Shown here piece after piece: positions 4,547 to 30,929 of a stretch of 30,929 nucleotides of DNA. The notes beneath the pieces were generated by a model. The model saw only the letters and a list, made by a program, of their open reading frames with translations. It had not been told where the DNA came from and did no database searches. The position numbers were made by a program, and so were the translations under genes. Location: contig JAYZAY010000051.1 in assembly GCA_036339465.1 (NCBI GenBank), positions 1-30,929 of the forward strand. Direction: 5' to 3'. This DNA comes from Myxococcota bacterium (GTDB taxonomy: Bacteria > Myxococcota > XYA12-FULL-58-9 > JABJBS01). The number at the start of each line of letters is the position of its first letter. The first letter of the stretch is position 1.

Positions 4547-4566
4547 TAATGAAGTGAGCGTGGTTG

Positions 4567-13833: not shown

Positions 13834-14847
13834 TTACTCATCGGCGTAAGCGGGATGGGCGGTTTGGGAAAGTTGGGCCAATGTCTCTTTCGTAAGCCAT
13901 TGGTCGTTGTTATCACTGCGGTAGGAGAATCCATCCGGGAGTTTTTCCGCCTGCGGCGATCCAGGACCGACCCACTTGTGGTCATGGGGTTGAATGACAA
14001 ACATTTTATCCACGCGAACCGCGTTTCTGGCTTCATCTTCTGAGATCAACGATTCGTGTAGCTTTTCGCCCGGGCGTATGCCGCTCGTTGTAATTTCGCA
14101 ATCGGGTCCAATGGCTTCTGCTAGGTCTAAGACTGCCATGCTGGATATTTTCGGAACAAAGACCTCACCTCCGGTTATGAGGGGAATACAGCTCAACACA
14201 AACCTGACGCCTTGATCCAAGGTTAGCCAAAAGCGGGTCATCCTTTTGTCGGTTACGGTGAGAGTGCCGGTTTCTCGTTGCTCAAGAAAAATAGGGATCA
14301 CACTTCCTCGGCTGCCCACCACATTACCATAGCGGACGCAAGCAAAACGGGTGTCTCTGGGACCCGAATAGGAATTCCCGTGGGTAAAAATCTTCTCCAT
14401 ACAGAGCTTGGTGGCTCCGTAGAGATTGATCGGACTCACGGCCTTGTCAGTGCTCAGGGCCATCACCCGGGAAATCCCACAGTCGATGGCCGCATCGATG
14501 ATATTCTTAGCTCCAATGACATTGGTTTGAATGGCCTCGAAGGGGTTGTATTCACAGGCGGGAACTTGTTTTAGGGCTGCGGCATGGACGACGATATCCA
14601 CCTCGGCTTTGAAAGCTCGGTAGAGACGCTCCTTATCGCGGATATCCCCGATGAAGAATTTTAATCTTGGGTCTTGTATTTCCCGACGCATGTCGTGCTG
14701 TTTAAGCTCGTCACGACTGAAGACAATCACCCATTTTGGGTGACAGGTTTTGAGGATGGTTTGTACGAAACGCCTCCCAAAAGAACCTGTTCCTCCGGTG
14801 ACTAGAATCGTTTTACCTTCGTAAAATGAAGAGATTTTTGACGACAT
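13834..14847 (-). CDS. pseB: UDP-N-acetylglucosamine 4,6-dehydratase (inverting)
   Basis: TGGTGSFG, FSRDELKQ, HAAALKQVPACEYNPFEAIQTN, STDKAVSPINLYGATK, RYGNVVGSRGSV, MTRFW, GIRPGEKLHE. Confidence 0.93.
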   Translation of the reverse strand: MSSKISSFYEGKTILVTGGTGSFGRRFVQTILKTCHPKWVIVFSRDELKQHDMRREIQDPRLKFFIGDIRDKERLYRAFKAEVDIVVHAAALKQVPACEYNPFEAIQTNVIGAKNIIDAAIDCGISRVMALSTDKAVSPINLYGATKLCMEKIFTHGNSYSGPRDTRFACVRYGNVVGSRGSVIPIFLEQRETGTLTVTDKRMTRFWLTLDQGVRFVLSCIPLITGGEVFVPKISSMAVLDLAEAIGPDCEITTSGIRPGEKLHESLISEDEARNAVRVDKMFVIQPHDHKWVGPGSPQAEKLPDGFSYRSDNNDQWLTKETLAQLSQTAHPAYADE

Positions 14848-14938: not shown

Positions 14939-16129
14939 CTAGTGCCGGTAGAATTTGATTACTTTTTCGAGTGCATCTAGGGTGTCTTGGGTGTCTTGCG
15001 AGGTCATGGCGGGAAAAATAGGGAGGGAAATCATTTCTTCGTATGCTCTTTCAGCATGGGGACAAAGTCCCAGTCCCAGGTTAAAATTTTCTCCATAGAG
15101 CGGATGCAGGTGAACTGGGATATAATGAACGTTTGCCCCGATGCCCTCGGCCTGGAGGGCCTGGAAAAACGGAGGCTTTGAAGCACTTAGGGCACTGAAA
15201 TCTATCCGAATTACGTAAAGATGATAAGCATGGGTCCTCTTTGGAGCTAATTTGAGAGGGGTGATTTCGTGGATTGCGCTTAAGGCCGAGTTGTAGGTTT
15301 GGGCGATACTTTGTCGCTTTTGGGTCCAGTGGGGAAGTTTATTGAGCTGACTTATCCCAAGTGCGCATTGGATATCTGTGAGTCGGTAGTTATAACCCAA
15401 GTCTGCAATTTCGTAGAGCCAAGAGCCGTTTTCCTCGCGTTCCCGGTGATCCACACTGATGCCGTGGTTTCGGAATCTTCGCATCCGGTCGGCCAATTCC
15501 GGTCGGTGGGTGGTGATCATTCCGCCTTCACCGGTGGTCATGGGTTTGACGGGGTGGAAACTAAAGACGGTCAGGTCGGCTAAATTTCCTACCCTCCGCC
15601 CCTTGTAAGTCGCGCCCAGGGAATGGCAGGCATCGGCAATCAGGGCGAGTTGATGTTCGTTGGCGATCTGTTGAAGCCTGTCGTAGTCGCAGGGCTGCCC
15701 AGCGTAATCCATGGCGATGATGGCTTTGGTGTGGGGTGTGATGGCGTTTTGTACGGCCTGGGGGCAAATGGTGAGGGTTTCGGGGGACACATCCACCAGG
15801 ACAGGTTTCCCTCTCTGATAAAGCACACAGTTGGCGGTGGCGGCAAAGGTGAGCGTGGGCACGATGACTTCGTCTCCCTCTTGGATGCCCAAGGCGTTCA
15901 TGGCGGTGTGAAGGGCTGCGGTTCCGTTGGCCACGGCCACGGCATGGTCACTTTGGGTATGGTTGGCGAAAGCTTCTTCGAATTCCGATACCTTCGGACC
16001 CGTGGTCAAAAAATCGGATCTTAGTGTCGCAACCACGGCCGCAATATCATCTTCGTCGATGGTTTGCCGTCCATAATTGAGACGTCGGCTCCGGACGGGT
16101 TTTCCGCCGTGGATGGCCAGTTTATTCAT
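14939..16129 (-). CDS. pseC: UDP-4-amino-4,6-dideoxy-N-acetyl-beta-L-altrosamine transaminase
   Basis: YGRQTIDEDDI...LRSDFLTTGP, DACHSLG, FSFHPVK..TTGEGG, LGYNYRLTDIQCALG, VHYIPVH. Adjacent to pseB. Confidence 0.9.
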   Translation of the reverse strand: MNKLAIHGGKPVRSRRLNYGRQTIDEDDIAAVVATLRSDFLTTGPKVSEFEEAFANHTQSDHAVAVANGTAALHTAMNALGIQEGDEVIVPTLTFAATANCVLYQRGKPVLVDVSPETLTICPQAVQNAITPHTKAIIAMDYAGQPCDYDRLQQIANEHQLALIADACHSLGATYKGRRVGNLADLTVFSFHPVKPMTTGEGGMITTHRPELADRMRRFRNHGISVDHREREENGSWLYEIADLGYNYRLTDIQCALGISQLNKLPHWTQKRQSIAQTYNSALSAIHEITPLKLAPKRTHAYHLYVIRIDFSALSASKPPFFQALQAEGIGANVHYIPVHLHPLYGENFNLGLGLCPHAERAYEEMISLPIFPAMTSQDTQDTLDALEKVIKFYRH

Positions 16130-16206: not shown

Positions 16207-17571
16207 TCAACTCGCTTCGCGCTGGCAATCGACGGTTTGCCCGTGGTTGGCTCCTAGAAAATCCATGAGCCAAGCAGAGATGGCTTGGGATTTTTCCAAG
16301 GCTCTTCGATTTGAGATTTGATATTCTTTCAGGATTCGGGTCGCTGCTCTTTTGATGTTACGTTGCGTGTCTTCGCGGAGGAGGGATGCGAACTTTTCTT
16401 CCATTTGCGCTTCGGTAGTGGCAACATGAATGATGCCACCACGGTACAAGGGGTGGGGGTTGAAGGCGTCTCCTCGGTAGAAGTTCTTTTCCACGCCACC
16501 CATACAGATCATGGTGGGAATACCTCTTCTAGAGCTATCCCAGATCACCGAGCTGATACTGTTGGTGACGACCAAGTCGGCCACTTCAAGGGCCTCGGGG
16601 AGGAAGTTTTGATGGACTGTTAGGTTTTTCATGTTCGCTTTGTAGGCGATGTGCTGGATGCCATTTTTCCAATCTGGATACACCCGGTTGTCTGCGTAAG
16701 CAGGATGGGCCTTTATCAGCACCTGAATCCTTTCTGCTTTTTGGTGTTGGGCAATGAAGCGAAACATGGATTGATAGAATTGAATTTCTCCCAGCTTGTC
16801 TTGAATATAGCCGGGGTAACTGGGCCCGAACCATGTGGGGGCAACAACAACGGTTTTTATCCCCGGCGCAAGCCCTAGGGTGCTAAAGCATTCGGTTTTG
16901 GATTTTGGGGGTGCATCGGAGCTATCCATGGGGGTGCCTAGGGGGAGCACTTGCTTGTTCTTCCAATGGGGTATTTCCCGGTCAAATTCATGGGCCAGTA
17001 GATTTTCCTCCTCCAAACGGTTGTCTACGCAGAGCACGTCGCCGATGTGAAGCATACCGGGTGAAGGCCAATAGCCCGGTCGAAAGGCCTTGGGGCTTGG
17101 TTGTGCTGCGGAGTATCCGTGCTCGATATTAAACACGGGTATGCCTCGCTTCTTTGCGTTGATCACCGCAGGTCTTTGGGCATAGTGATATTCGGCATTG
17201 GTTAGGAGCAAATCCAACTCAACCGCCTCACAAAGAGCGTTAAAACATTGGTCGAGCACCATGCAGGATTTGGATAGGTGTTCGAATACCTGAAATAGGT
17301 GGTCCTCAATATGGGGGAAAGTGCCGGATTTTAGGCTTTGGAGTCGATAGGTGAGTCGTGCGTAGAATTCCGCTATCTCCCGAGTCCATTTCATAGGATC
17401 GAGGTTTTTATCGCGATCACCAATTAGGGATTCCACAGATATTGCATGCTTGAGTTTTAGACTGTCGAATTTGGCGTCTGAAAAATAGATGAGTTGAAAA
17501 TGGGTATCCAGTTCTCGAATGAAGGTGGTGTGATGGTCGAGGCGCAAACCCATGCATAGAATCTTTTTCAT
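16207..17571 (-). CDS. Putative GT-B transferase with HP motif (candidate nonulosonate/pseudaminyl transferase)
   Basis: AKKRGIPVFNIEHG, VVVAPTW, LIKAHP, ADLVVTNSISSVIWDS..RGIP. Directly upstream of pseC-pseB. Confidence 0.55.
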   Translation of the reverse strand: MKKILCMGLRLDHHTTFIRELDTHFQLIYFSDAKFDSLKLKHAISVESLIGDRDKNLDPMKWTREIAEFYARLTYRLQSLKSGTFPHIEDHLFQVFEHLSKSCMVLDQCFNALCEAVELDLLLTNAEYHYAQRPAVINAKKRGIPVFNIEHGYSAAQPSPKAFRPGYWPSPGMLHIGDVLCVDNRLEEENLLAHEFDREIPHWKNKQVLPLGTPMDSSDAPPKSKTECFSTLGLAPGIKTVVVAPTWFGPSYPGYIQDKLGEIQFYQSMFRFIAQHQKAERIQVLIKAHPAYADNRVYPDWKNGIQHIAYKANMKNLTVHQNFLPEALEVADLVVTNSISSVIWDSSRRGIPTMICMGGVEKNFYRGDAFNPHPLYRGGIIHVATTEAQMEEKFASLLREDTQRNIKRAATRILKEYQISNRRALEKSQAISAWLMDFLGANHGQTVDCQREAS

Positions 17572-18290
17572 CTCAGACTCTGTTGTAGCATGGCGGTGAA
17601 GAATTTTGGCATGTCATACCAAAGTGCGGCTTCCAGATAAGAGAGGTCGTTTTCATCGCTCGAGAATGTGTGGTTGAGCATGGTTACCAAGTCAGTTCGC
17701 AGTTGCTGGCTCAATGTATCATCTTGGGTGATTGGGTGTCGTTTCCAAAACTCTTCAATCATCTCGTAATCGAGGCAAGCGTGGGCGAAACAGTGAGGGC
17801 AATAAAAGTGTTTCAGGACACATAAACTTTGTTGGATCCGACAAGCTGAAATGGTCTGACAACACGGGCATTGGAGTTTAAACTCGAATTCCGTGCAATC
17901 CACCGGTAGCACCTTGCAGCCGAGAATATGAACTCGGTATGTCTCTTCGCGACCGGTTTTCAGATGTGAATCATACCACTCCCAGTGGTTTGTGATGTTT
18001 TCGGTGGCTTTTTGGAGGGCTTCGAATCCAGTGGATGGTTCGATGATCGTGCTCAGGCGCCAAAGTGGTGCCAACTCATGTTTGGAGAGATCGGGCAATT
18101 TTGGGATGAGAAGATCGTAACAGTTTTCTACGTGGGGCAATTGATTCAGGAGCATGCTTAATCGAGCCAATTCGGTGACACTTTTGGTGGTGTAGCCCAA
18201 TTTCTCTTTGGATTCGATGAAGAGGTTGAAGGCTTCTTCGACGCGTCCGGAGAGCCGGAGATGGGCGATAGCCTTAAGTGGGGTTGTCAT
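17568..18290 (-). CDS. Hypothetical protein: helical N-terminus plus Cys-rich putative Zn-binding domain
   Basis: CPCC and CPHC pairs. The stop overlaps the next ATG (ATGA at 17568-17571). RBS GGAG upstream. Confidence 0.7.
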   Translation of the reverse strand: MTTPLKAIAHLRLSGRVEEAFNLFIESKEKLGYTTKSVTELARLSMLLNQLPHVENCYDLLIPKLPDLSKHELAPLWRLSTIIEPSTGFEALQKATENITNHWEWYDSHLKTGREETYRVHILGCKVLPVDCTEFEFKLQCPCCQTISACRIQQSLCVLKHFYCPHCFAHACLDYEMIEEFWKRHPITQDDTLSQQLRTDLVTMLNHTFSSDENDLSYLEAALWYDMPKFFTAMLQQSLR

Positions 18291-18381
18291 TTTGAATTCT
18301 CCAAGGAGCCATTGCTTACACCAAAGGTGCCTGTGGATAGAAAGGAATTTGGGGAGGCCTTGGCACCCAATCCCCCCAAGG

Positions 18382-18408
18382 GCATCGCCGAAAAGACGCT
18401 GAACTGTA
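18382..18408 (-). promoter_or_regulatory. Sigma28 (FliA)-like promoter for the hypothetical-GT-pseC-pseB unit
   Basis: Minus strand TACAGTTC-N11-GGCGATGC versus extended consensus TAAAGTTT-N11-GCCGATAA. Confidence 0.4.
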
Positions 18409-18531
18409 GTCGAAGCGCCGGATTTAAGCGTGGGCTTTTGTCCTTGTCAAAACTTCCCGATGTTTTCCGATTGTGCTCGAAGTGGCGGCCCATAAGTTTA
18501 GTTTAACGGGGGCTCATGTTACCTTTGGGCA

Positions 18532-19125
18532 ATGAGTGATTTTGACGTCTTTATTACCGGCGATAAAGTAAATTTAGTGGCTTTGAATGAGAAAGTGATT
18601 CTGAGCACGCCTTGGTATCAGTGGTTCAACGATGAGCGTGTGACCGAGTCGATGCAAAAGCATTATTTCCCCAACTCTAAGGCGGAGCAACTGGAATTCT
18701 ACGAGCGCCATATCAAGGGGAATAAGCACAAACTTCAATTGGGAATTGTAACCAAAAATGATGGTTCCATGGTGGGAATCATTTCCCTAGATGCCATCAA
18801 CTACATCAATTCCAGCGCCGCCGTCGCGATTTGTATTGGTGAAGAAATCCCCAGTCGCTTGAAGATTTTTGTGGAAGCGAATTACCTCATTATGAAACAT
18901 GGTTTTGAGAGTTTGAATTTGTTTCGTATTTCGGGAGGCACTTTTAATCGGCAGATCTTTGATTTGAATTGCAAAATGTTGGGTTTTGTCGATGAAGGGA
19001 TCAGTCGCAAGGCGGTTTTCAAAGGCGGATCCTACCACGACGTATACCGCTTTGGTCTTTTAAGGGATGAGTTTCAAGGTGGCCTGAAGCTTCAAATGGA
19101 AAAACGCCAACAACCCCTAGGTTGA
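18532..19125 (+). CDS. GNAT (RimJ/RimL, PseH-like) N-acyltransferase
   Basis: WYQWFND..VT, VGIISL..I, HGFESLNLFRI, LGFVDEG..RKAVFKGGSYHDV.RFGLL. Confidence 0.8.
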   Translation: MSDFDVFITGDKVNLVALNEKVILSTPWYQWFNDERVTESMQKHYFPNSKAEQLEFYERHIKGNKHKLQLGIVTKNDGSMVGIISLDAINYINSSAAVAICIGEEIPSRLKIFVEANYLIMKHGFESLNLFRISGGTFNRQIFDLNCKMLGFVDEGISRKAVFKGGSYHDVYRFGLLRDEFQGGLKLQMEKRQQPLG

Positions 19126-19130
19126 TGATG

Positions 19131-19550
19131 CTATTCTTTTGGCAGTTCTAAGATTTCCACCAATCCCACCTGAGCATTCCAGAGAAAGACAATTCGATTT
19201 TCGAACACCGGGGAGAAGGTAATGGGGGTGACTGGCATCCATTTGTCGTTTCGTAGGAAATCGAAGGCTTGTTCCAAAATAGGTACGCCATAACACGTGT
19301 GATAGGGGCCCACCTTGAGTTTTTCCTGCCAGGCCCAAGCCGGAGAGGAGTTGTCGATGGGGGTGACCAATTCTACCAAAGGACCTGAGTGGTGTTTGAG
19401 TATTTCCACCCAGACCTTCTGGGCCTTATCCTCGATGGCCCTTCCCCGTTGGTAACCTAGATGGTGGTAATGTTGGGCGGTTTTCTCTGGCTCAGGCGTG
19501 ATAATGCCTATGTGGTGAAAGGAGAAGTTGGGTGTTTCTTGCGCAGTCAT
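19131..19550 (-). CDS. VOC-family protein, methylmalonyl-CoA epimerase-like
   Basis: FHHIGI, DKAQKV, VELVTP, PYHTCY, LVEILE: His/Gln/Glu/His/Glu pattern. Confidence 0.8.
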   Translation of the reverse strand: MTAQETPNFSFHHIGIITPEPEKTAQHYHHLGYQRGRAIEDKAQKVWVEILKHHSGPLVELVTPIDNSSPAWAWQEKLKVGPYHTCYGVPILEQAFDFLRNDKWMPVTPITFSPVFENRIVFLWNAQVGLVEILELPKE

Positions 19551-19756
19551 CTCTTTGAACCATGATTTCTATCGAAGTTAAAAAGAGTACGCAAGTTCTG
19601 GTTATAGTGAGATTTATTCCGCGAGAGCCGAACTTGCGCAGGGTCGCTATTTATGATTTTTGTGATCGGAGACTTCTCCTTGGACTGGGTATTAGACTCG
19701 GGGTTCCAGGTTTCGCTGAGTATTGTCATCAACCAAGTCTCGGGGGGATTAGGAAA

Positions 19757-20002
19757 GTGTTGGAAAAACGAGTACGAGAGCTTTTCTGCAAAACCCTGAA
19801 ACTAGATTCTGAGCATTTTGATCCGGATCTTGGTGCGGGCGATATTCCGCAGTGGGACTCTTTAGCCCATGTGGCGCTCTTGCAGGCAGTTGAGCAAGAC
19901 TTTGGGATCATCTTCGACCTCGGGGACGCCATTGATATTGAGACCATTGGCGACCTCTTGAGCGCCGTTAAGCGCTATACGTCTTTGGCTAGTGGTGACT
20001 AG
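19757..20002 (+). CDS. Acyl carrier protein (WbeK-like)
   Basis: IPQWDSLAHVALLQAVEQDFGIIF...TIGDL phosphopantetheine motif. Start at GTG 19757 or TTG 19760 after GGGGGATTAGGA; the longer 19562 start is unlikely. Confidence 0.88.
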   Translation: MLEKRVRELFCKTLKLDSEHFDPDLGAGDIPQWDSLAHVALLQAVEQDFGIIFDLGDAIDIETIGDLLSAVKRYTSLASGD

Positions 20003-21577
20003 ATGAATCTGGTCGAAGAGTTTTTACTGAAAAGTGCCGAGAAGACCCCCGATAAATTGGCTTTCGGAGATCCCAAAACCGCTCTAACCTATGAAGAACT
20101 AACCTCGCGGGTTATGGGATTCGCCTTTGCCCTCTCACATCAGCACCAAGTTGATGAAGAGCGTATCCTCATTCTCTTACCCAACAGTGTGGATTTTATG
20201 GTGTGCCATTTAGGTGTCATCGCATCGGGAAATATTAGCGTGCCCTGCGATTGCGCCATTGGTTTTCAATCGCTAGAGCAAATTCTTGCGTGCGCTTCGC
20301 CGAAGGTACTTATCACCACCCGAGTGGTCCATGAGCGGTTGCACACCGTCCTAACCGCATCCAGTATCAAGAGTGTTCTTTTTGTGGATGGGCTCCCCGA
20401 GAGAAACCTCTCATATTCGCGCGGTGTCTTTATCCTTAACGAAATCCTAGAACCCTCTTTGAGTGCCTCCCTAATCCGAAAGTCGAATCTACCTGCTTCG
20501 ATCATGTATACCACGGGTTCTACCGCCCTTGCCAAGGGGGTCGTTTTGACCCATGAAAACATTTTTGCGGCCATTAGCGAGATATGCGAATTTGTGGGCT
20601 ATACGCCAAATGATAAGGAGGTCGTGGTTTTGCCCCTTTCCCATAGTTTCGGGTTGGGACATGTGTACTCCAATTTCTATAAACAAGGCTTTGTTTATAC
20701 GGAAAATGGTTTAACCCGCATCAAGCGGGTGCTCAATAAAATAGAATCTTTGGGAGCGACGGGCTTTCCGGGGACTCCTTTGGGATTTTCTATCCTCATG
20801 GACCGCTATGGTGATTTGTTTGCCGAAAAGGCTCGCTCTCTTCGGTTTTCAGTGATCAATTCGGCGCCCTTGCCACCGGCGCAGACCGCGGCGCTTCAAA
20901 AACTTTTACCCAATTTGAATATTTTTGTTTATTATGGGCTCACCGAGGCCTCTCGCTCCACCTTCATTTCTTTGACCCATCATGGCCCAGATTACTACGC
21001 ATCCGTGGGCAAGCCCATGAACAATGTGCATTTGGAGATTGTGAATGAAGAAGGCGAACCTGCGGATCCTCATGAAGTGGGGGAGGTTATGATTTCATCT
21101 CCCAGAGTCGCCAGTCATTATTGGGAAAACGAAGCAGAATCCCAAGCCAGTTTTAAGCAAGGCACCCTGAGGACCGGTGATTTAGCATTCCAAGATCCCG
21201 ACGGCTTTGTCTTTTTGGTCGGTCGAAAGAAAGACGTGATCAATATCGGGGGGTTGAAGGTGAATCCCAAAGAGGTGGAAGAGGTCGTTAGGAGTCTTGA
21301 TTACGTGCGCGACGTGGCGGTTTTGGGGCTTGAGGGCTATGGGAATTACGGAGAAGCATCGGTGATTGCGGCCATTTGCATGAAAGATGGTCGGGAGGTC
21401 TCCGATGAAACCCTCAACACTCGGTGCCAAGAAAAGCTCGAAAACTACAAGGTTCCCCATCGCTTTGTTAAACTAACCCAAATCCCGAAATCGGAGACCG
21501 GCAAGGTGAAACGAAAGGAATTGGCAACCATACTTCATGAGAAACTGGCGTCGGCCGATTTGGTCGATCATGGGTAA
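20003..21577 (+). CDS. AMP-forming acyl-CoA/acyl-ACP ligase (WbeL-like)
   Basis: YTTGSTALAKG, LPLSHSFG, YGLTE, RTGD, GRKKDVINIGG, PKSETGK. Confidence 0.9.
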   Translation: MNLVEEFLLKSAEKTPDKLAFGDPKTALTYEELTSRVMGFAFALSHQHQVDEERILILLPNSVDFMVCHLGVIASGNISVPCDCAIGFQSLEQILACASPKVLITTRVVHERLHTVLTASSIKSVLFVDGLPERNLSYSRGVFILNEILEPSLSASLIRKSNLPASIMYTTGSTALAKGVVLTHENIFAAISEICEFVGYTPNDKEVVVLPLSHSFGLGHVYSNFYKQGFVYTENGLTRIKRVLNKIESLGATGFPGTPLGFSILMDRYGDLFAEKARSLRFSVINSAPLPPAQTAALQKLLPNLNIFVYYGLTEASRSTFISLTHHGPDYYASVGKPMNNVHLEIVNEEGEPADPHEVGEVMISSPRVASHYWENEAESQASFKQGTLRTGDLAFQDPDGFVFLVGRKKDVINIGGLKVNPKEVEEVVRSLDYVRDVAVLGLEGYGNYGEASVIAAICMKDGREVSDETLNTRCQEKLENYKVPHRFVKLTQIPKSETGKVKRKELATILHEKLASADLVDHG

Positions 21578-22724
21578 ATTGCGCATTTCCATTCCCGTAC
21601 CTCGGTTTCTGAGCGCAGGAGAAGTTTTTGCGTCGGCGGGTAGTTTGGGGGTTTTACGGGCCTTAAATGCGGCGAAGGCCGCCGTGCTACTTTCCGGTTC
21701 CATTGCTCGAAACGATGAAATCATGGCGCATATCAGGAAATCCGTGGGGGCTTTGGCGGTGGCGTACTTTGTGGTGCCTGCGGGCGAGCCGCGCCTCGAA
21801 AATTTGAGCGAGCTACAAAGGGAGGTGAACGCCTTTCGTCCCGATTGGTTGGTGGCCATTGGGGGTGGTTCGGTTATCGATAGTGCTAAGCTTATTTGGA
21901 TTCATTATGAACATCCCGACCTCGAGCTGGAGAGATTGGTAAGGCCTTTTGGGATCCCTCCCTTAAGGGGTAAGGCCTCTTTGGTGGCTGTGCCGACGAC
22001 TTCCGGCACGGGCACGGAAGTGAGTTCGTCGGCCCTTTTTCTGAGCCATGGCACTTCGGAAAAGCAGGTGGCTGTATCCCACGATCTCTTGCCCGATGTG
22101 GTGATCCTCGATCCCAAACTAACCATTGGGGTGCCTAAGAAAGTCATGGCCTATTGTGGTATGGACGCCTTAGCCCATGCCCTTGAGGGATATATCTCCC
22201 GCAATGACAATATCCTGGTGGACCAGCAGGCAGAGAGTGTCGTTCGGACCCTCTTTTCTTCTCTTGAAGGAGCTCGCGAACAACCAACAAACCTGGAGTT
22301 GCGTTTGACTATCATGTCTGCAGCTTTGACCGCCGGATGGGTGCAGAACTTGAAGTTGCCGGGAATAGGCCACGCCATTGCCCATCAGCTCGCAGATGTG
22401 GGTGTGCCACACGGCTTGGCTGTAGGCAGGCTTCTTGTTCCCAGTCTTCAATTCAATCTAAACTCGGAAAAAGTGAACCGAAAAATCGAAGCGTTACTTT
22501 CTCGTTGGGATGGTGGAACTCCGGCGTCTCTTCTAGAACGGTTGGAAGGCCTGGCGACTCGGCTTGGAATTTACGACGATTTTCAAACCTTTGCTCCACG
22601 ACTTTCCCAAAACGATATTTGTAAGCGTATCGTGACCGGAGCTCAGAGAGATATCTGCTTTAAGGCGAACCCCCGAGACGCTCAAGTGAGTGATCTTGAG
22701 GGTTTATTGGCCGAGGTTTCGTAG
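21570..22724 (+). CDS. Iron-containing alcohol dehydrogenase (WbeM-like)
   Basis: GEP, AIGGGSVIDSAK, VPTTSGTGTE, DALAHALE, GHAIAH, PHG. ATG 21570 overlaps the ligase stop. Confidence 0.9.
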   Translation: MGKLRISIPVPRFLSAGEVFASAGSLGVLRALNAAKAAVLLSGSIARNDEIMAHIRKSVGALAVAYFVVPAGEPRLENLSELQREVNAFRPDWLVAIGGGSVIDSAKLIWIHYEHPDLELERLVRPFGIPPLRGKASLVAVPTTSGTGTEVSSSALFLSHGTSEKQVAVSHDLLPDVVILDPKLTIGVPKKVMAYCGMDALAHALEGYISRNDNILVDQQAESVVRTLFSSLEGAREQPTNLELRLTIMSAALTAGWVQNLKLPGIGHAIAHQLADVGVPHGLAVGRLLVPSLQFNLNSEKVNRKIEALLSRWDGGTPASLLERLEGLATRLGIYDDFQTFAPRLSQNDICKRIVTGAQRDICFKANPRDAQVSDLEGLLAEVS

Positions 22725-22734
22725 GGAGTTAGCG

Positions 22735-25272
22735 ATGGGTGGCGCACAGGAAAATAAGATAGACGCGCTGCTGGCGATGGACCCCTATGGCGTTGAGCCA
22801 GAGGTTAAGAACGCAAAGTTGCTGGAGGCAATGGCCGAAGCCCATCGTTGGCATTTTGAGAATTGTCTGGCCTATCGTCGTTTTTCAGAGAAGCGAGATT
22901 ATGCAGCCGACCATGTATTTGGTTGCCTTAAAGATTTTCCTTTTATGCCAGTTCAGGCCTTTAAGTTCTTTCCAGACGCGCTTACTTCTGTGGCGGGAGA
23001 GGATATTAAAGTTCGATTACAATCTTCAGCGACCAGCAACGTTCCGAGTACGATTCATGTGGATAAAATCACGGCGAAACGCCAGGTCAGGGCTCTAGCG
23101 GCGGTGATTGGTGCGACCTTGGGTTCTAAACGACGGCCCTTTGTGGTGATGGATGCGGACCCTCGACAAGCTAAAGCGGGGGCTTTGGGAGCGCGGTCGG
23201 CTGCGGTGAGGGGGTTTCTCAATCTCGCTTCAAAGGTTGAGTATGTGATGAAGGTTCACAAATCAGGAGGGCTTGTACTGGATGAACAAGCCTTTTGTGC
23301 CAGTCTGGATAAGCTTTCAAAAGTGGAGCCCACAGAAGGTGAACCCATGGTTTTATTTGGCTTCACCTACGTCCTTTATCACGAGGCAGCGTTGCCTTTG
23401 ATGGAAAAGAAGTGTTCTTTTTCTTTACCCGCGGGGAGCAAAATCGTCCATATTGGTGGATGGAAAAAACTCGAAGACCGAAAGGTTAGTAAGGAGAAGT
23501 TCTGCCGGGATTTGTCGTCGCTTTTTGGGCTTGAGGATTCCGATATTGTGGATTTCTATGGTTTCACAGAGCAGATGGGAATTACCTATCCCGATGTTTC
23601 TCTCGGGGTCAAATGTGCTCCCGCGTTCTCCGATGTGATTGTGCGCGACCCTAAAACCCACGAAGTGGTGCCAGACGGCGAGACCGGTCTTTTGCAGTTT
23701 CTAACGCCATTGCCCCATTCATATGCGGGTATTTCCATCCTTACTGACGATCTTGGTCGGATTTTGCCGGCGGATGGTGGCAGTGCCTGGCATGGAAGGC
23801 GTTTCGAAGTTCTGGGAAGAGCCAAAGCTGCGGAGATCCGTGGCTGTGGTGATATGATGGCCGAAAAAGTGGTGTCAAATCGGATGGGAGATCCCGAAGA
23901 CTTAGCTTCATTGCCCCAGGCCGCAAGGCTTCTTTTCGCACATGGAAAATCCCATGTAATTGAAGGATCGGGAGAGGAGAGCAGCATCCTTGAGGCTCCC
24001 GTGATTGAGGATATCCATGCCCTGATGGATTCTCTCATCGCTTCCCAAGAAGTTTTAAGGACCTACTCGGTCGACGAGATCATTACCTTGATCTCTTCGG
24101 TGAGCGACCGCTGGTTGGACGAAGATTCCCCACTGGCTCCATTCAAATATCAGGGGCTATCGTTTTTGAAAAGCTGGTGCCAGTCGGCGAACCTTAGGCG
24201 TTTGGCCGATGAGGCTCTCCGCGGCCACCGCGGTTATTTAGACGGATTCCGTCCCACCCACGGTTCCAACCGGCGCCTACTTCGCGCTGTGGAGAAGGGT
24301 TTGGTGGCCCATTGGCTGGCCGGAAATGTTCCCCTTTTGGGAATGTTAACCCTCGTTCAATCTGTTCTCTGTCGGAATGCGAATATTTTGAAGACCGCCA
24401 GTTCATTTTCGGGTGTTTTACCACTCCTATTGGAGACCTTTGTGGATGTGGAGATAGAAAAGAATGGGCGGGTCTTACGGGGCAACGATATCCTCAATAG
24501 TTTAGGGGTGGTCTATTTTCCTTCCGGCGATATTGCCACCGCCCACGCCATCTCTGGTCGGGCTGATGTTCGATTGGCGTGGGGAGGTCGGGAAGCGGTG
24601 GAAGCGATCACCGGTTTACCCAAGAAATACGATGCGGAAGATATTGTTTTTGGACCGAAGCTATCTTGCATGGTCATTGGCCGGGAACTTCTAGGAAGTG
24701 ACGAGGACATCAAGCGGGCGGCTCGCCGGACGGCGACGGATGTATCCACCTTTGACCAATATGCGTGTGCGTCTCCACACACAATCTTTGTGGAAATGGG
24801 TTCTGTACACGGCACTCCAAAGCATTTTGGAGAGATCTTGGGTTTGGAAATGGAAAAGGCTTTGAAGAGAATTCCCAAAGGTCTGGTGGATGCAGCCACG
24901 TCTGCCAATATTTTGAGTAAGCGCCTTCACTATGACTTTTTTGGCGAATATTGGGCTTCTTTGGGCACTGAATGGACGATTTTGTATGAGCCTGAAAAAA
25001 TCGAACTTGCAACCCCCACCTATTCTCGGGTTGTGACCATAGTACCAGTGGAAGATGTTCAAGAAGTTATCCCACTCTTGGATTCAAGTATCCAATCGGT
25101 GGGATTGGGGTTGAAGGATTCAAGAAAACTAGAGTTTGCAGAAATGGCCATTGGCCGCGGAGTGGAGAGACTTCCCGATCTGGGACGCATGACTCACTTT
25201 GATAGTCCTTGGGACGGTATGTACGTGATGGAACGTATGGTGCGCTGGGTGTCAGCGGGCGGCCCTATGTAG
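22735..25272 (+). CDS. LuxE (acyl-protein synthetase)-LuxC (acyl reductase) fusion (WbeN-like)
   Basis: LuxE part: FMPVQAFK, SSATS, FGFTY, HIGGWKK, DFYGFTEQ, ILTDDLG, GRAKAAEIRGC. LuxC part: HWLAGNVP, AWGG, FGPK, FDQYACASPH. RBS GGGAG before ATG 22735. Confidence 0.88.
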   Translation: MGGAQENKIDALLAMDPYGVEPEVKNAKLLEAMAEAHRWHFENCLAYRRFSEKRDYAADHVFGCLKDFPFMPVQAFKFFPDALTSVAGEDIKVRLQSSATSNVPSTIHVDKITAKRQVRALAAVIGATLGSKRRPFVVMDADPRQAKAGALGARSAAVRGFLNLASKVEYVMKVHKSGGLVLDEQAFCASLDKLSKVEPTEGEPMVLFGFTYVLYHEAALPLMEKKCSFSLPAGSKIVHIGGWKKLEDRKVSKEKFCRDLSSLFGLEDSDIVDFYGFTEQMGITYPDVSLGVKCAPAFSDVIVRDPKTHEVVPDGETGLLQFLTPLPHSYAGISILTDDLGRILPADGGSAWHGRRFEVLGRAKAAEIRGCGDMMAEKVVSNRMGDPEDLASLPQAARLLFAHGKSHVIEGSGEESSILEAPVIEDIHALMDSLIASQEVLRTYSVDEIITLISSVSDRWLDEDSPLAPFKYQGLSFLKSWCQSANLRRLADEALRGHRGYLDGFRPTHGSNRRLLRAVEKGLVAHWLAGNVPLLGMLTLVQSVLCRNANILKTASSFSGVLPLLLETFVDVEIEKNGRVLRGNDILNSLGVVYFPSGDIATAHAISGRADVRLAWGGREAVEAITGLPKKYDAEDIVFGPKLSCMVIGRELLGSDEDIKRAARRTATDVSTFDQYACASPHTIFVEMGSVHGTPKHFGEILGLEMEKALKRIPKGLVDAATSANILSKRLHYDFFGEYWASLGTEWTILYEPEKIELATPTYSRVVTIVPVEDVQEVIPLLDSSIQSVGLGLKDSRKLEFAEMAIGRGVERLPDLGRMTHFDSPWDGMYVMERMVRWVSAGGPM

Positions 25273-25325: not shown

Positions 25326-26606
25326 CTAACGATGTGTGGGTACAGGCCTGGGGGTTTGGTCCACCCATCCTCGCCCTAGGAGTTGGTATCCATCTTCTAT
25401 GGGATTTGGATCACGAGGAGGATTGTTTTGAAAATCGCAGCTAGAAATGTTGTCTAAGCGTGCGCTGCCCACTCCCGGGTCGTTGCGGTGATTTACGACC
25501 GAGTCTTTTAGCATCCAGGCTCCATTGGAGAGCCGGTCCCAAATTTTAGATGAGCGCATGTTTTCGAAATTGCTCCAGAAGTCACCTTCATTCATTTCTA
25601 ACCAATTCAGGAATATCTGTAGATCACGGGGCTGAATAGGTTCGTAGCGATGGACCAAATCGATGCCTTCTTCCCGTGTGATCCGGCGCAGACGAATTTC
25701 TCGGCTTACATGGTCACTGATCTTACCATAACCGTGTTTGATGAATTTGGTATAGTCATGGATACCCGAATAATGGAAACAGTCCACATCGTTGTAGGTA
25801 TCCATGGTTCGTTGCTGGAGCATGGTTTCGTAACCGTGCGCCTCGATCATGGATTCATGCTGGGCCTTGGTGTCCCAGCGAAGGTAATTGTTTAAATAGA
25901 TTCCTCGCACACCGACCGATTCGATTTCTTTATCGTGGGGATACACAAATTGTTCGACGTCTTCTCGCTGAAGAAGGGCACTTTGTTGGAGAAGGTCCTC
26001 TGCTTCGAGCCCCATTAAATCGTGGTTTTTGCGATATTTGCGGGTCATTTCCACTTCGTCGGTATGGGAGAACATGCCCACTTGGTCCACTCCTTGGTGT
26101 GCTCCCCAGATGATGAGTGGGATCCTAAAATTAACCGCTACCTGCACAGGATACACGGTTTGCCCGGCGATGCAGTGCCAATACATGCTCCCTCTTCTTT
26201 TGAGGGTTTCTCGGGTTATCTTTTTCACTCGCTGGGGGCTGACTGTGCATTGCATGAAGTCACAACCCATCTGGGTGCGAAGATATGCCATATTGCGAAT
26301 TCCCATGCGGGTGTTGTAATGCTTGTTGTAGTTGACCAAGAGGGGATGCAGGCCCAATATATTCTTTACCACATAAACGATGTAGTAGGAGTCGCGACTC
26401 CCGGTAATGGGTACGACGCAATCATGGATGCTTCGCCGAGAATTCTTGTAGGGAGCGACCATGGCCTTGAGTTTCTGAAGTCGCTCTTGCCAGGGAAGTG
26501 CGTCTTTTTCTTCGTGGATTTTGCATCCACTGCAGATCCCATCTGCATCAAAGATGATGCCAAGAGCGTGATTTTCGGGATACACACAGCGCGTGCAATA
26601 TTTCAT
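25326..26606 (-). CDS. N-acetyl sugar amidotransferase (PseA/WbpG/WbuX family), variant PP-loop
   Basis: YCTRC...GICSGC, DCVVPITGSRDS, WHC, IPLIIWG, YLNNYLRWD, KFIKHGYG, RITREEG. Confidence 0.85.
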   Translation of the reverse strand: MKYCTRCVYPENHALGIIFDADGICSGCKIHEEKDALPWQERLQKLKAMVAPYKNSRRSIHDCVVPITGSRDSYYIVYVVKNILGLHPLLVNYNKHYNTRMGIRNMAYLRTQMGCDFMQCTVSPQRVKKITRETLKRRGSMYWHCIAGQTVYPVQVAVNFRIPLIIWGAHQGVDQVGMFSHTDEVEMTRKYRKNHDLMGLEAEDLLQQSALLQREDVEQFVYPHDKEIESVGVRGIYLNNYLRWDTKAQHESMIEAHGYETMLQQRTMDTYNDVDCFHYSGIHDYTKFIKHGYGKISDHVSREIRLRRITREEGIDLVHRYEPIQPRDLQIFLNWLEMNEGDFWSNFENMRSSKIWDRLSNGAWMLKDSVVNHRNDPGVGSARLDNISSCDFQNNPPRDPNPIEDGYQLLGRGWVDQTPRPVPTHR

Positions 26607-27472
26607 ATGACTTCCTCGGGGATATAGGTGAAGCGTAGACTCGTAAGTTTTTCTTCGGGATATGAATCGAGTCTTCCACCTTGGGTGAAGCTACTTTCTG
26701 GATAGGTGGCATAGGAATCCAAGCGAATGTCTGATCCCATTTGGATTAATTCGCGTTTGGCCAAGATGACGCTATGTTCGGAAAAATGAAAGAAGTTGGC
26801 GGCAGCAACTGCCGAGGCGCCAGTATCGATCCCCTCTTTAAGGTGTCGGCTATGCCCTACGCCGCCACATGCAATGATTGGTACTGAGGCAGTTTGGCAC
26901 ACTTCTCTCAGGAGCTGGAGGTCGTATCCTTTTTTTGAACCGTCTCGGTCCACTGAATTTATGAGGATCTCGCCCGCACCCAATCTTTCGGCCTGCGCGA
27001 CGGCGGTAGGTAAATCGATTTCCGATTCTCGCTGGTCTTTGTGATTGTAAGTCGCGTATTTTCCGTCCGCCTTTTTCAGGGCATCAATGGAAACGACGAT
27101 GGCCTGGCGACCTGCGAACTTGGCTCCTTCGGCGATCACATCGGGGTCGCTGGATAATACCGAGTTTAGGATGACCTTATCTGCACCAGATTGAATCACT
27201 TTTCTCAGGGTTTCGCAGGAGCGAATACCACCACCCATAGACAGGGGAACGCGGCACTCTTGGGCGCATCTTTCAATGAGTTCAAAATCTGGATCGCGTT
27301 TTTCTCTTGTGGCATCAATGTCCAAAATAACAATTTCATCGATGCCCCAGCGATTGAGGTATTCCACTGTGATTTCGGGAGAGCCCACAGGTAAATAGCG
27401 AGAAAATCCGAGGCTTTGTACGACGTGCCCATTCTTGACCAATACCACAGCAACCACCCGGGGCTTTAACAT
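26603..27472 (-). CDS. HisF-like subunit of sugar amidination system (WbuZ/HisF2 type)
   Basis: DEIVILDID, MGGGIR, GADKV, QAIVVSID, GAGEILINSVDRDG.K.GYDL, ACGG. Lacks the HisF catalytic Asp11. Confidence 0.88.
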   Translation of the reverse strand: MLKPRVVAVVLVKNGHVVQSLGFSRYLPVGSPEITVEYLNRWGIDEIVILDIDATREKRDPDFELIERCAQECRVPLSMGGGIRSCETLRKVIQSGADKVILNSVLSSDPDVIAEGAKFAGRQAIVVSIDALKKADGKYATYNHKDQRESEIDLPTAVAQAERLGAGEILINSVDRDGSKKGYDLQLLREVCQTASVPIIACGGVGHSRHLKEGIDTGASAVAAANFFHFSEHSVILAKRELIQMGSDIRLDSYATYPESSFTQGGRLDSYPEEKLTSLRFTYIPEEVI

Positions 27473-28116
27473 GCTATCTTCTCCGCTATTTCGATTTCTT
27501 CGGCATGTTTCAGAAAGTTTCTAAGGAGCTTCAGCCCATTTCTTTGGCTTTTTTCGGGATGAAATTGAGTTGCAAAAATATTTTCGCGACGCAATGCGGA
27601 CACAATTGGAATGCCGTAGTCACAATGTCCTACGGCCACCGATGGATCTGAGGGGATGAAGTGGTAACTATGATCAAAGAAGAAATGACTTTGTGTGGGG
27701 ATATTGTCGAAGAGTTTTTTATGGGATGCTACTTCCACCGTATTCCAGCCGACATGAGGCACACAGACAACTCGGGATTTGTCTAATTCTACGATATGGC
27801 CAGGGATCCAGCCGAGGCCCCGGGTTAACTGGATTTCAACGGAGTCTGTGGCTAGAAGTTGCATACCCAAACAAATTCCCATGAATGGTTTTTTTCGCCC
27901 GACAACCTCGTGGGTGAGGATTGTATCTAGGTCGTAGGATTTTAGGTTGGTCATGGCTTGTGGGAACGCACCTACTCCAGGAAGCACGATGCCATCTACT
28001 TGCGCTAATATGTCTGGAGACCGGGTTAGAAATGTATCCGCTCCAAGTTCATTTAGGGCTCCAAGCACGGAAGCAATATTTCCCATCCCATAGTCAACCA
28101 CGGCTATTCTAACCAT
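27466..28116 (-). CDS. HisH-like glutamine amidotransferase (WbuY type)
   Basis: VDYGMGN, LPGVGAF, GICLGMQ (Cys), PHVGWN, QFHPEKS (His/Glu). Confidence 0.92.
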   Translation of the reverse strand: MVRIAVVDYGMGNIASVLGALNELGADTFLTRSPDILAQVDGIVLPGVGAFPQAMTNLKSYDLDTILTHEVVGRKKPFMGICLGMQLLATDSVEIQLTRGLGWIPGHIVELDKSRVVCVPHVGWNTVEVASHKKLFDNIPTQSHFFFDHSYHFIPSDPSVAVGHCDYGIPIVSALRRENIFATQFHPEKSQRNGLKLLRNFLKHAEEIEIAEKIAC

Positions 28117-29263
28117 TGGCAGCCTTCTCCTTTACTTGCTCGGGCCTGTAAAATCCTCGATTGAGGGCCCAATTTCCGTCTTTATTCTGAGACCAAATAT
28201 CGAGTGAGCGTGTTTTTTCTATTTTTTTCCGAAGAGCCTCTGGAGGCATTTCTACGAAGTCGGCTAGTTTCTCGATATAGTGGTCTCCGCATCCCTGATC
28301 GAATTGTTCAACCAATTTGAGACCTTCCTCTCGGGTTATTTTTCCCGCATGTATTCGTTCCATTACTTGGTCGGTGACGTGTCCAAATCCAAATTTGAGG
28401 TATTTGATGTGCTGGTTCACTATCCTGAAATCTTCATCCACTGCGGACACGCCCCACAGGTCTCCAGTGTTTTCAGGCGCATCTTCACGGGTTTTCAAAC
28501 CCTTGGAAATCGCAAATTCAGCATTGTTTTTACCCGACCAGTCTTCGATATAATACCCGAGGTAAATAATTCTCAGTTTGGCTTTTTGAACGTCCGTGTC
28601 GGCGGGGTAGTTATAGAAATGGAGGTCCTGTGGGCCGATTTTATCATCCAGGAATCGATCGGCATTACCTCCCATGAGGGTATTGGCATGGCGCATTTGC
28701 GATGCATCTCCATCTAGGCGGCCGTGTTTCTCTCCAATGGTTTGAGCTGGGTTTTCACCAAGAAACACCAAAGGTATTTGGTAAGCGATGGCAGCGTGTA
28801 TGGGGATGGCATAGAGCGACATTTCGGAGTGGTTGCAAATATTGCCAAAACGGTCGATGCATGTTCGCATGAGTTGCTTATAGATCTGAGGATTTAGGCT
28901 CAGAGTGACGCAATCGAAACCATGGCTGATTAGATTTTCAAGGTTCTTGGCGCCTCGTTCATGGAGTTGTTCGGGGGGATAGACCGCACTTACAAGTAAG
29001 GGGTTTAAGCCTAAATTGTCTCTGGCGAAGAATGCTTGACGCATTGAATCCTTTCCGCCACTGACGGTAACGATGCAGTCGTAGGAAGATTTTGTGTTTT
29101 CCCGGCCCCACTGGCATATCTCTTGTATTTCCGCATTCCTCGTATCCCAATCAGCTCCTGTGTGGAAATATTCACAAACCGAACAAATCCCATCAGCGTT
29201 GATGGATACGTTGGGACGAGTCGATAGGTTTACGCATTGTCGGCACAATTGGATTTCTTTCAT
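28109..29263 (-). CDS. N-acetyl sugar amidotransferase (PseA/WbpG/WbuX family)
   Basis: CRQC..STRP...GICSVC, YDCIVTVSGGKDS, GENP, YLGYY, KYLKFGFG, ITREEG. Confidence 0.88.
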   Translation of the reverse strand: MKEIQLCRQCVNLSTRPNVSINADGICSVCEYFHTGADWDTRNAEIQEICQWGRENTKSSYDCIVTVSGGKDSMRQAFFARDNLGLNPLLVSAVYPPEQLHERGAKNLENLISHGFDCVTLSLNPQIYKQLMRTCIDRFGNICNHSEMSLYAIPIHAAIAYQIPLVFLGENPAQTIGEKHGRLDGDASQMRHANTLMGGNADRFLDDKIGPQDLHFYNYPADTDVQKAKLRIIYLGYYIEDWSGKNNAEFAISKGLKTREDAPENTGDLWGVSAVDEDFRIVNQHIKYLKFGFGHVTDQVMERIHAGKITREEGLKLVEQFDQGCGDHYIEKLADFVEMPPEALRKKIEKTRSLDIWSQNKDGNWALNRGFYRPEQVKEKAANG

Positions 29264-30580: not shown

Positions 30581-30929
30581 GCTTTTCCTCTGCCGCGACA
30601 ATCATGGTTTGGTACATGACTTCGGCTTGCTCCCAATCTTCAGGCGTATCAATATCCTGAACGAATTTTCTCGGTAGAATAATGGGGCGCGCATCTTCGG
30701 TGTAGATTTTTAGGGATTGCAAAAAAGGAGGCACTGCAAACCAATAAAATTGACCCGCATCATGGTAGGCCTCGGGTAAATCTTGTGAACGGGTTAGTTC
30801 GTGTTCTGGCCAAAACATGCTTAGACAACCATTCTCTATTCTTAGGCCACGAAAAATGGGGAAGGGAAAGGAGGTCACGGCAAAGGAGCTCGAGCACTTG
30901 AAGGTTTCGATATTTTTGAGTCCTTCTTT
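30564..30929 (-). CDS. pseF: Pseudaminic acid cytidylyltransferase, 3' part (runs off the window)
   Basis: FAVTSFPFPIFR, TRSQDLPEAYHDAGQFYW, VQDIDTPEDW. Frame is open to the window end. Confidence 0.85.
   Translation of the reverse strand, partial: KEGLKNIETFKCSSSFAVTSFPFPIFRGLRIENGCLSMFWPEHELTRSQDLPEAYHDAGQFYWFAVPPFLQSLKIYTEDARPIILPRKFVQDIDTPEDWEQAEVMYQTMIVAAEEKHETGD

Follow-up and report, generated by a model that had tools for sequence, protein, structure and literature searches.

What would an acyl-building cassette of the kind found in the O antigen locus of Vibrio cholerae O1 do among genes for pseudaminic acid? The question is raised by a 30.9-kb stretch of DNA from a Myxococcota bacterium (hereafter the window), which is an entire contig (C51 of a 4.17-Mb assembly) and holds a glycan gene island. 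Four of its genes encode an acyl carrier protein (ACP), an ANL adenylating ligase, an iron-type alcohol dehydrogenase (Fe-ADH), and a fusion of LuxE and LuxC (LuxEC), and they stand beside a GNAT gene and a VOC gene. The reading that we favor, with a confidence slightly above even, is that this counterpart of WbeK-L-M-N builds a hydroxy-acyl-ACP, with which the GNAT N-acylates a pseudaminic-type sugar in place of acetate. Gene content, orthology, conserved residues, a recurrent arrangement, and a complex model that passes its controls were directly established. The open reading frames (ORFs) and the Pfam and NCBIfam matches of the six genes agree with the positions given in an initial annotation of this DNA:

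18532-19125, plus strand: GNAT (Pfam Acetyltransf_3)
19131-19550, minus strand: VOC/glyoxalase-fold protein, between GNAT and ACP (Pfam Glyoxalase_4)
about 19757-20002 (ORF 19562-20002), plus strand: ACP, WbeK-like (PP-binding, ORF residues 70-135)
20003-21577, plus strand: ANL adenylating ligase, WbeL-like (AMP-binding and AMP-binding_C)
ORF 21537-22724, likely start 21570, plus strand: iron-type alcohol dehydrogenase, WbeM-like (Fe-ADH and ADH_Fe_C)
ORF 22690-25272, called gene 22735-25272, plus strand: fused LuxE-LuxC of 845 aa, WbeN-like (Pfam LuxE 300 bits, LuxC 284 bits)

Tetronate is a C4 acid, and wbeK-L-M-N-O (rfbK-O) was reportedly proposed in 1995, from sequence, as the set of genes for 3-deoxy-L-glycero-tetronate. 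In V. cholerae ATCC 14035 (locus L036), we found, in this order, manC, manB, gmd, a perosamine synthase gene, transport genes, and then genes for an ACP, a 471-aa ligase, an Fe-ADH, an 825-aa LuxEC, and a hexapeptide-repeat (LbH) transferase. The window proteins match their V. cholerae equivalents with identities of 44-45% for LuxEC (residues 5-845), 40% for Fe-ADH, 35% for ACP, and 27% for the ligase, the last being a weak match. Order and direction of the four genes are shared, and both cassettes lie inside a surface-glycan cluster and adjoin a DegT aminotransferase. Judged by these protein matches, the ACP, ligase, Fe-ADH, and LuxEC of the window are the full-length counterpart of V. cholerae O1 WbeK-L-M-N. 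The two loci differ in that the window has a GNAT instead of the hexapeptide-repeat WbeO, pse-type sugar genes instead of those for GDP-perosamine, and an added VOC gene; as the initial annotation had said, family searches of the window found neither a gmd or perosamine synthase equivalog nor a WbeO-like hexapeptide (Hexapep) transferase. The V. cholerae O1 antigen bears a tetronate acyl group, WbeL (471 aa) is predicted to be needed for tetronate, and deletion of wbeL abolishes the O antigen (PMC3441752). Since the gene content of L036 fits WbeL as published, the set and order of wbe genes given in the initial annotation were right.

Are the cassette proteins likely to be functional enzymes? 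The catalytic motifs, which had been described as intact, are present in our alignments of LuxEC, Fe-ADH, and ACP. Aligned with the solved Photobacterium LuxC-LuxE complex, the fusion retains the LuxE Lys, Arg, and acylated Cys (R-G-C-G-D motif) and the LuxC Cys, which the structure paper gives as K238, R355, and C364 of LuxE and C296 of LuxC, and these positions are invariant in 28 family members. The GGGS motif and the D/H/H/H metal-ligand positions of Fe-ADH align with the ADH domain of AdhE. The ACP, which probably starts at GTG 19757 or TTG 19760 and would then be about 81 aa long, has the motif W-D-S-L, of which W-D-S is invariant in 26 relatives, and is 45-53% identical to its nearest clade. 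Furthermore, the genes are closely packed: the ligase ATG follows immediately after the ACP stop, the likely Fe-ADH start (ATG 21570) leads to an 8-nucleotide overlap with the ligase stop, and LuxEC starts at ATG 22735 behind GGGAG.

The Pfam names LuxE and LuxC invite a different reading, in which the cassette is a LuxCDE-like fatty acid reductase that makes a long-chain aldehyde, alcohol, or acyl-ACP, and the glycan carries a lipid. The window proteins do share with that system the domain folds and the residues for acyl-AMP, Cys-thioester, and NADPH-reduction chemistry, and the top NCBIfam matches of the ligase, every one of them under its cut-off, are named long-chain-fatty-acid-CoA ligases. 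However, LuxEC scores far below the NCBIfam equivalogs (LuxC 103 bits, cut-off 750; LuxE 79 bits, cut-off 550) and is by this measure no member; its domains are fused, and its family has an insertion with an invariant G-A-R-x-A-A that is absent from LuxE. Neither LuxD nor luciferase (LuxAB) nor fatty acid synthesis genes were found in the window by family searches. In addition, the nearest relatives of two of the enzymes act on short polar substrates: the ligase is closest, among solved structures, to oxalate-CoA ligase (170 bits) and malonyl-CoA synthetase, and the Fe-ADH to AdhE, 1,3-propanediol, 4-hydroxybutyrate, and lactaldehyde enzymes. The GNAT family, as described below, has FkbH-type loaders as its most frequent partners, and such loaders make C3 units. 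V. cholerae O1, with the counterpart genes, bears tetronate (PMC3441752). We consider a long-chain product very unlikely, and favor a short polar acyl acid, at which the ligase and Fe-ADH relatives, the cholera tetronate, and the FkbH partners of the GNAT family hint by analogy.

The long-chain interpretation has been published for comparable gene sets. In Aeromonas group II polar-flagellin islands (98 strains), the stretch from pseBC to pseFGHI encloses genes for an ACP, a 3-oxoacyl-ACP reductase, an AMP-synthetase, LuxE, and LuxC, which the authors took for fatty-acid genes, suggesting a liposugar (PMC7874193); flagellin glycosylation islands of Enterobacteriaceae hold similar genes, likewise read as fatty-acid genes (PMC4875605). 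As described in these papers, the islands resemble the window in having an ACP, an AMP-dependent synthetase, LuxE, and LuxC among pse genes, but are set apart from it by separate LuxE and LuxC and by a FabG-like SDR in the place of Fe-ADH. The earlier statement that the route is not known to be characterized is fair for its biochemistry, whereas gene sets of this sort in pse islands are already in print.

How far the cassette extends beyond this contig was determined with a one-genome-per-species search. An alignment of LuxEC gave 223 loci, 80 of which were kept and underlie all counts of LuxEC loci; a search with the single LuxEC protein gave no relatives. For each family of neighbors, tblastn was run with several queries, at E up to 1e-4 and with half of the query covered; as many loci end at contig ends, the counts are lower bounds. 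We found an ACP in 71 loci, a ligase directly upstream of LuxEC in 73, and an Fe-ADH in 52, with ACP-ligase-(Fe-ADH)-LuxEC as a recurrent, common order and direction. Since this order recurs in loci of other genomes, it is not due to chance. Around this core, the search recovered LbH transferase (34 loci), KAS III (32), FabG-like SDR (30), DegT (27), PglC-like transferase (25), VOC (17), split transketolase (15), NeuB (11), and CMP-transferase (10) genes; nonulosonic acid genes occur in 13 loci and an AAC(3)-like transferase in three.

The neighbors include perosamine genes in V. cholerae, PglD/PglE/PglF-like genes with a PglC-like gene (L008, L003), a full pse set (L059), and NeuB with a CMP-transferase (L040). 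By Pfam annotation, Cerasicoccus and an Opitutus metagenome-assembled genome (MAG) have the cassette with PglD-, PglE-, PglF-, and PglC-like genes. In the Bacteroidales MAG of L059, the cassette lies inside the complete pse set with an SDR replacing Fe-ADH, and in Treponema parvum (L040), it adjoins NeuB, a CMP-transferase, a DUF4910 protein, and an AAC(3)-like transferase. As a portable unit, the core of four genes is found beside perosamine, bacillosamine-type, or nonulosonic acid genes, and the survey supports the initial annotation in that such modules recur with amino-sugar genes, nonulosonic acid clusters included. The fold of the transferase beside the cassette varies with the sugar context, as would suit one acyl-donor cassette paired with transferases that are each specific to an acceptor.

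Several of these loci have features of their own. The closest relatives of the window LuxEC (L001-L005 and L010, 51-55% identical) have a KAS III gene added downstream, and L001-L004 and L010, though not L005, also have a FabG-like SDR and an LbH transferase; the window is without KAS III, SDR, and LbH, and the extra genes suggest chain extension in those versions. In 15 of the 80 loci, a split transketolase pair is found directly upstream of ACP-ligase-LuxEC, and those loci have no cassette Fe-ADH; going by this gene order, the transketolase may act on the LuxC aldehyde in a two-carbon extension. The transketolase of the window is 13 kb from the cassette, among heptose-type genes. At L040 (4541-12469), a DUF4910 aminopeptidase-like gene and the AAC(3)-like transferase gene are followed by VOC, ACP, ligase, Fe-ADH, and LuxEC, with NeuB adjacent. 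Among 61 sampled Treponema genomes, fused LuxEC turned up in that of T. parvum only, and split LuxE (36-38%) in three others. The glycan of Treponema denticola bears a 2-methoxy-4,5,6-trihydroxyhexanoyl nonulosonic acid (PMC13439194), and an attempt to tie the cassette to it made no link.

Which protein would take the acyl group from the ACP? The initial annotation had named the GNAT, and several findings make it a good candidate. Scored against PseH, the window GNAT reaches only 23 bits (cut-off 93), and its family is small: a large protein collection contains just 22 relatives, with identities of 39-52%. A metagenome scan with the family alignment found 266 relatives; 80 loci were kept, and the counts for GNAT loci are drawn from these. 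Among the 36 loci of at least 5 kb, there are genes for ACP in 26, DegT in 24, CMP-transferase in 19, NeuB in 18, PseG in 10, and WbuX in 8. In loci with at least 4 kb downstream (n = 27), an ACP lies within 6.5 kb in 24 and an FkbH-like gene in 21; in those with at least 1.5 kb upstream (n = 33), a same-strand DegT gene is directly upstream in 16, and 15 of these 16 are closer to DegT2, the second DegT-family aminotransferase of the window, than to PseC (median identity 48%). The common form of such a locus, by Pfam annotation, is DegT, GNAT, methyltransferase, FkbH-like, ACP. What is new here is that the window GNAT belongs to a small family found in nonulosonic acid clusters, usually with an ACP and an FkbH-type loader.

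The Lux-type module takes the place of that loader in a few of these loci, being found beside the GNAT in L134 and L149, while the short loci L144, L157, and L162 have a ligase with or without Fe-ADH. L134 is a near-complete match to the window, with PseB-like, CMP-transferase, NeuB, DegT2-like, GNAT, ligase, Fe-ADH, LuxE, LuxC, and ACP genes and, after a VOC gene on the opposite strand, WbuX, HisH, WbuZ, and WbuX. Whereas its GNAT, DegT2, and WbuX are 37-60% identical to those of the window, its Lux-type genes are only 24-34% identical and are unfused, which points to separate recruitment, that is, to one GNAT family having been joined to Lux-type modules of different descent. The acyl-building genes beside the GNAT are interchangeable, and one GNAT family together with DegT2 links Lux-type and FkbH-type cassettes. 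A VOC gene accompanies both types: it lies beside Lux-type modules in 17 of the 80 LuxEC loci and also beside FkbH-type modules, for example in L121 and L126, and two annotated GNAT loci have it between the methyltransferase and FkbH-like genes. This placement would fit an enzyme working at a 2-hydroxy thioester; the window VOC, which matches methylmalonyl-CoA epimerase weakly (30 bits, cut-off 115), would epimerize or isomerize the acyl thioester.

Since a GNAT fold usually uses acetyl-CoA, the GNAT could instead be an acetyl-CoA-dependent PseH-like or unrelated acetyltransferase, with the acyl group transferred by another protein, for example, the product of ORF 16207-17571 or 17568-18290. 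In line with this, the GNAT has a weak match to PseH and lies outside the transcription unit of the ACP, and the transferases adjacent to the cassette elsewhere are of other folds (LbH in 34 and AAC(3)-like in 3 of the 80 LuxEC loci). The co-occurrence of the family with an ACP, given above, argues otherwise, as does the sequence of the protein itself. The glycine-rich loop of GNATs binds the CoA pyrophosphate, and this loop is absent from the family: the window has EEIPSRLKIF at the aligned position where its nearest solved relatives, SpeG-type enzymes, have QGYGYA or SGKGYA. Furthermore, a model of the GNAT-ACP complex reached ipSAE values of 0.67, 0.68, and 0.68 in three runs, compared with 0.10 for the best control. 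The ipSAE mark is reached by 116 of 157 solved complexes and by 2 of 215 mismatched pairs, and it is a rough guide here because the alignments were our own. The three runs share at least 97% of their contacts, have a partner pLDDT of at least 85, and place D34-S35-L36 and helix II of the ACP in contact with GNAT residues 107-114 and 141-151. The model supports binding. In addition, the genome holds a better PseH candidate elsewhere, and the two ORFs have no relatives in the 80 LuxEC loci; among the GNAT loci, relatives of the 240-aa ORF were found in 0 of 80, and of the 454-aa ORF in none of the 36 loci of at least 5 kb. We therefore judge an acetyl-CoA-dependent GNAT to be improbable and regard the window GNAT, from the model and its gene company, as a good candidate transferase with the ACP as the proposed acyl source. 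It belongs to a family, defined here, of putative acyl-ACP-dependent GNATs, whose genes occur together with those for a dedicated ACP and for nonulosonic acids and whose members have lost the loop.

To which sugar would the acyl group be passed? The genes around the six bear on this question, and they are listed here with the other features of the window:

13834-14847, minus strand: pseB (TIGR03589, 472 bits, above cut-off)
14939-16129, minus strand: pseC (TIGR03588, 459 bits, above cut-off)
16207-17571 (454 aa) and 17568-18290 (240 aa), minus strand: two ORFs without a family, between pseC and GNAT
25326-29263, minus strand: WbuX-WbuZ-HisH-WbuX amidotransferase set for acetamidino-type modification (TIGR03573 twice above cut-off; WbuZ 247 bits, below the cut-off of 300; HisH)
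29294-30601, minus strand: DegT2, second DegT-family aminotransferase (Pfam DegT_DnrJ_EryC1)
30564-30929, minus strand: C-terminal part (107 residues) of PseF, a CMP-sugar synthetase, cut by the contig end (TIGR03584, E 6e-36)
4564-6345: split transketolase, with N and C halves as two genes
2362-3870, 8991-10361, and 10590-11999: three radical SAM genes, one B12-binding and two with an N-terminal twitch/SPASM domain

The initial annotation had placed the six genes between pseCB and pseF, which is correct, but it did not state that the VOC gene is on the minus strand and did not mention the two ORFs, both WbuX genes, WbuZ, HisH, or DegT2. In the genome as a whole, pseB, pseC, and the Lux-type genes are single-copy. 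The gene for PseF is split over two contigs, with its N-terminal 90 residues (CTP_transf_3 match) at the end of contig C8; since the start of pseF runs off that end, C8 continues the window. PseG (254 bits) and pseI (494 bits) are on contig C3, both above their cut-offs, and beside them is a PseH-like GNAT gene of 71 bits, which is below the cut-off of 93 but makes a better PseH candidate than the window GNAT, to which it is 24% identical over 107 residues. With this separate PseH candidate in the genome, the window GNAT would be an extra enzyme.

The amine that the GNAT acylates had been assigned to the PseC product, and in that form, the assignment gained no support. The conserved neighbor of the GNAT resembles DegT2, in 15 of 16 adjacent aminotransferases, and not PseC, so that the acceptor amine may come from DegT2. 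Against the PseC and LegC models, DegT2 scores 217 and 193 bits, both under the cut-offs, and in the window, it abuts pseF. Beside the PseB-like, PseG, or NeuB genes of L134 and L158, no aminotransferase other than a DegT2-like one was seen. We consider DegT2 the likely source of the amine, with the PseC product as a possible acceptor. DegT2 and the GNAT would then form a branch parallel to PseC and PseH, both starting from the PseB product and both leading to N7.

The acceptor could also be another amino sugar of the glycan or another nonulosonic acid, to which the acyl-ACP is supplied as proposed, in which case the pse neighborhood would reflect a shared glycan island. The Lux-type cassette does serve perosamine and bacillosamine-type contexts, with nonulosonic acid genes in 13 of its 80 loci, and the nearest solved relatives of DegT2 include perosamine synthetases and a Kdo-8-aminotransferase. 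Also present, in the left half of the window, are heptose-type genes, the split transketolase, the three radical SAM genes, and a glycosyltransferase-like gene. Such further sugar pathways in the window and two further NeuB loci elsewhere in the genome (contigs C17 and C49) mean that another sugar could be the acceptor. On the other hand, the GNAT family and its DegT2-like partner occur mostly in nonulosonic acid clusters, as the counts for NeuB, CMP-transferase, and PseG indicate (18, 19, and 10 of 36 loci), and L134, L158, and the position of DegT2 next to pseF point the same way. We regard a different acceptor as a minority prospect, unlikely but with some claim on attention, and retain the pseudaminic-type sugar as the favored one.

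Taken together, these observations can be arranged into a pathway, of which every chemical step, substrate, and acceptor is our inference. The LuxE domain would activate one carboxyl of a small dicarboxylic or hydroxy-dicarboxylic acid, most likely a malate-like one, which would move as a thioester to the LuxC domain and be reduced to the aldehyde; the Fe-ADH is proposed to convert this aldehyde to the alcohol. The ligase is proposed to load the acid onto the dedicated ACP by joining its other carboxyl, before or after the reduction, and the VOC protein may epimerize or isomerize the 2-position of the thioester. The GNAT would then move the short hydroxy-acyl group from ACP, not CoA, to the 4-amino group of a nucleotide-linked 4-amino-4,6-dideoxy-hexosamine, which DegT2 or PseC would produce from the PseB product. 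In acylating this PseB-derived 4-amino hexosamine, the GNAT would stand at the usual place of PseH. PseG and PseI, from contig C3, and PseF would yield a pseudaminic-type nonulosonic acid with an N7 hydroxy-acyl group, and the two WbuX amidotransferases may convert the product further to an amidine form. The term "hydroxybutyryl-type," used for the acyl group in the initial annotation, was too definite, since its basis is analogy; 4-hydroxybutyryl nonulosonic acids did not appear among the literature matches listed.

The logic of this pathway has parallels. A short polar acyl group that is built on a dedicated carrier and moved to a sugar amine is found in the butirosin side chain, with BtrI as the carrier protein and BtrH as the transferase, in an antibiotic pathway whose enzymes are unrelated to the window cassette. 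The FkbH-type glyceryl-ACP modules of nonulosonic acid clusters are closer: they have in common with the window the GNAT family, the DegT2-like neighbor, a dedicated ACP, and the logic of a small, carrier-borne hydroxy-acyl group for N-acylating a nonulosonic acid, but differ in using an FkbH-like loader and a methyltransferase rather than ligase, Fe-ADH, and LuxEC. Campylobacter jejuni presumably has a member of the window GNAT family. In strain NCTC 11168, the acyl group of di-O-methylglyceroyl-pseudaminic acid is on N5, and the locus tied to this sugar includes the aminopeptidase-like gene Cj1295, whose product is implicated, and the N-acetyltransferase gene Cj1296/7 (PMC3068675).

These parallels suggest a more general scheme, which we put forward tentatively and with less than even confidence. 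In it, acetyl replacement on nonulosonic acids would be modular, with a fixed part (DegT2 and the carrier-dependent GNAT) and plug-in cassettes of the FkbH type, for a C3 glyceroyl group, or of the WbeKLMN type, for a C4 dihydroxybutyryl-like group. The window would then specify a previously undescribed N7-(2,4-dihydroxybutyryl) pseudaminic-type sugar, possibly as an amidine. The same scheme would explain two masses reported from Aeromonas flagellin: 376 Da for the linking sugar, a pseudaminic derivative of unsolved structure, and 102 Da for an unidentified moiety at the end of one glycan (bioRxiv 10.1101/2024.05.20.594992). A dihydroxybutyryl or O-methylglyceroyl group would fit both masses (316 - 42 + 102 = 376; C15H24N2O9 + H = 377.156, compared with the reported 377.16 of the same preprint); this is arithmetic and serves as a lead only.

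Several observations weigh against the favored pathway, in which the WbeK-L-M-N counterpart feeds the GNAT. The pairing of the GNAT with LuxE/LuxC is rare from either side: of the 27 GNAT loci that extend at least 4 kb downstream, two have these genes, and of the 80 LuxEC loci, one has a match to the window GNAT and five have a GNAT detected with any of three query types. The GNAT is transcribed apart from the ACP operon, with the opposite-strand VOC gene between them. Fused LuxEC was not found in five genomes of the same family, which leaves no close-kin conservation to lean on, and genomes of the same order yielded only distant split LuxE/LuxC genes; the window cassette is patchily distributed. 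Carrier proteins dock on many enzymes, and a complex model is no measurement. The tetronate role in V. cholerae rests on wbeL genetics and a proposal from sequence, and searches of the literature on tetronate, dihydroxybutyryl, or rfbN/wbeN biochemistry yielded no enzyme assay of any cassette member in any organism. The long-chain names of the NCBIfam matches of the ligase, the heptose genes as a further sugar pathway inside the window, and the additional NeuB loci belong on the same side.

Other features of the island and its genome complete the picture. In the window, two WbuX genes flank WbuZ and HisH, and this four-gene pattern recurs beside GNAT relatives in L107, L134, L158, and L163. 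The radical SAM genes adjoin GmhA, an HddA-like kinase, and an SDR fused to a nucleotidyltransferase. In the region 16207-18506, the 454-aa ORF has a sub-threshold Glyphos_transf match, the 240-aa ORF and an 81-aa ORF have no family match, and, like the two longer ORFs, the 81-aa ORF has no relatives in the 80 LuxEC loci. For ORF 17568-18290, the ESM Atlas gave nothing usable, with feature scores all below 0.9. We compared ORF 16207-17571 with the TagF-like gene that adjoins the GNAT in L163 and found no detectable relationship. A promoter and terminator scan gave no more sites than in shuffles. Contig C8 (L180) carries a GFO/IDH/MocA oxidoreductase gene and a GT1 glycosyltransferase gene, the former family being present in 20 of the 80 GNAT loci. 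On contig C3 (13469-18065, L088), a gene for a TPR and GT41 protein, which we take to resemble FlmG-type flagellin glycosyltransferases, adjoins the PseH-like GNAT, pseG, and pseI, with a D-2-hydroxyacid dehydrogenase gene nearby. As for the two further NeuB loci (L181 and L182), one carries an ATP-grasp-HAD fusion along with a UDP-GlcNAc 2-epimerase-like gene, and the other encodes a CMP-transferase-HAD fusion, an MptE-like (Maf-type) protein, and an AMP-binding protein.

The N-acyl groups that pseudaminic and legionaminic acids carry influence flagellar assembly and recognition by phages and antibodies. A 2017 paper on Tannerella described knowledge of the modifying enzymes as scarce and the genetic basis of N-glyceroyl groups as a major challenge (PMC5378307). 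Our analysis offers concrete candidates, namely, a carrier protein, a transferase family with a recognizable signature, and a partner aminotransferase, and it links two cassette types that were previously treated apart. If the proposal is true, unusual nonulosonic acid structures would become predictable from genomes, and such sugars could be made enzymatically.

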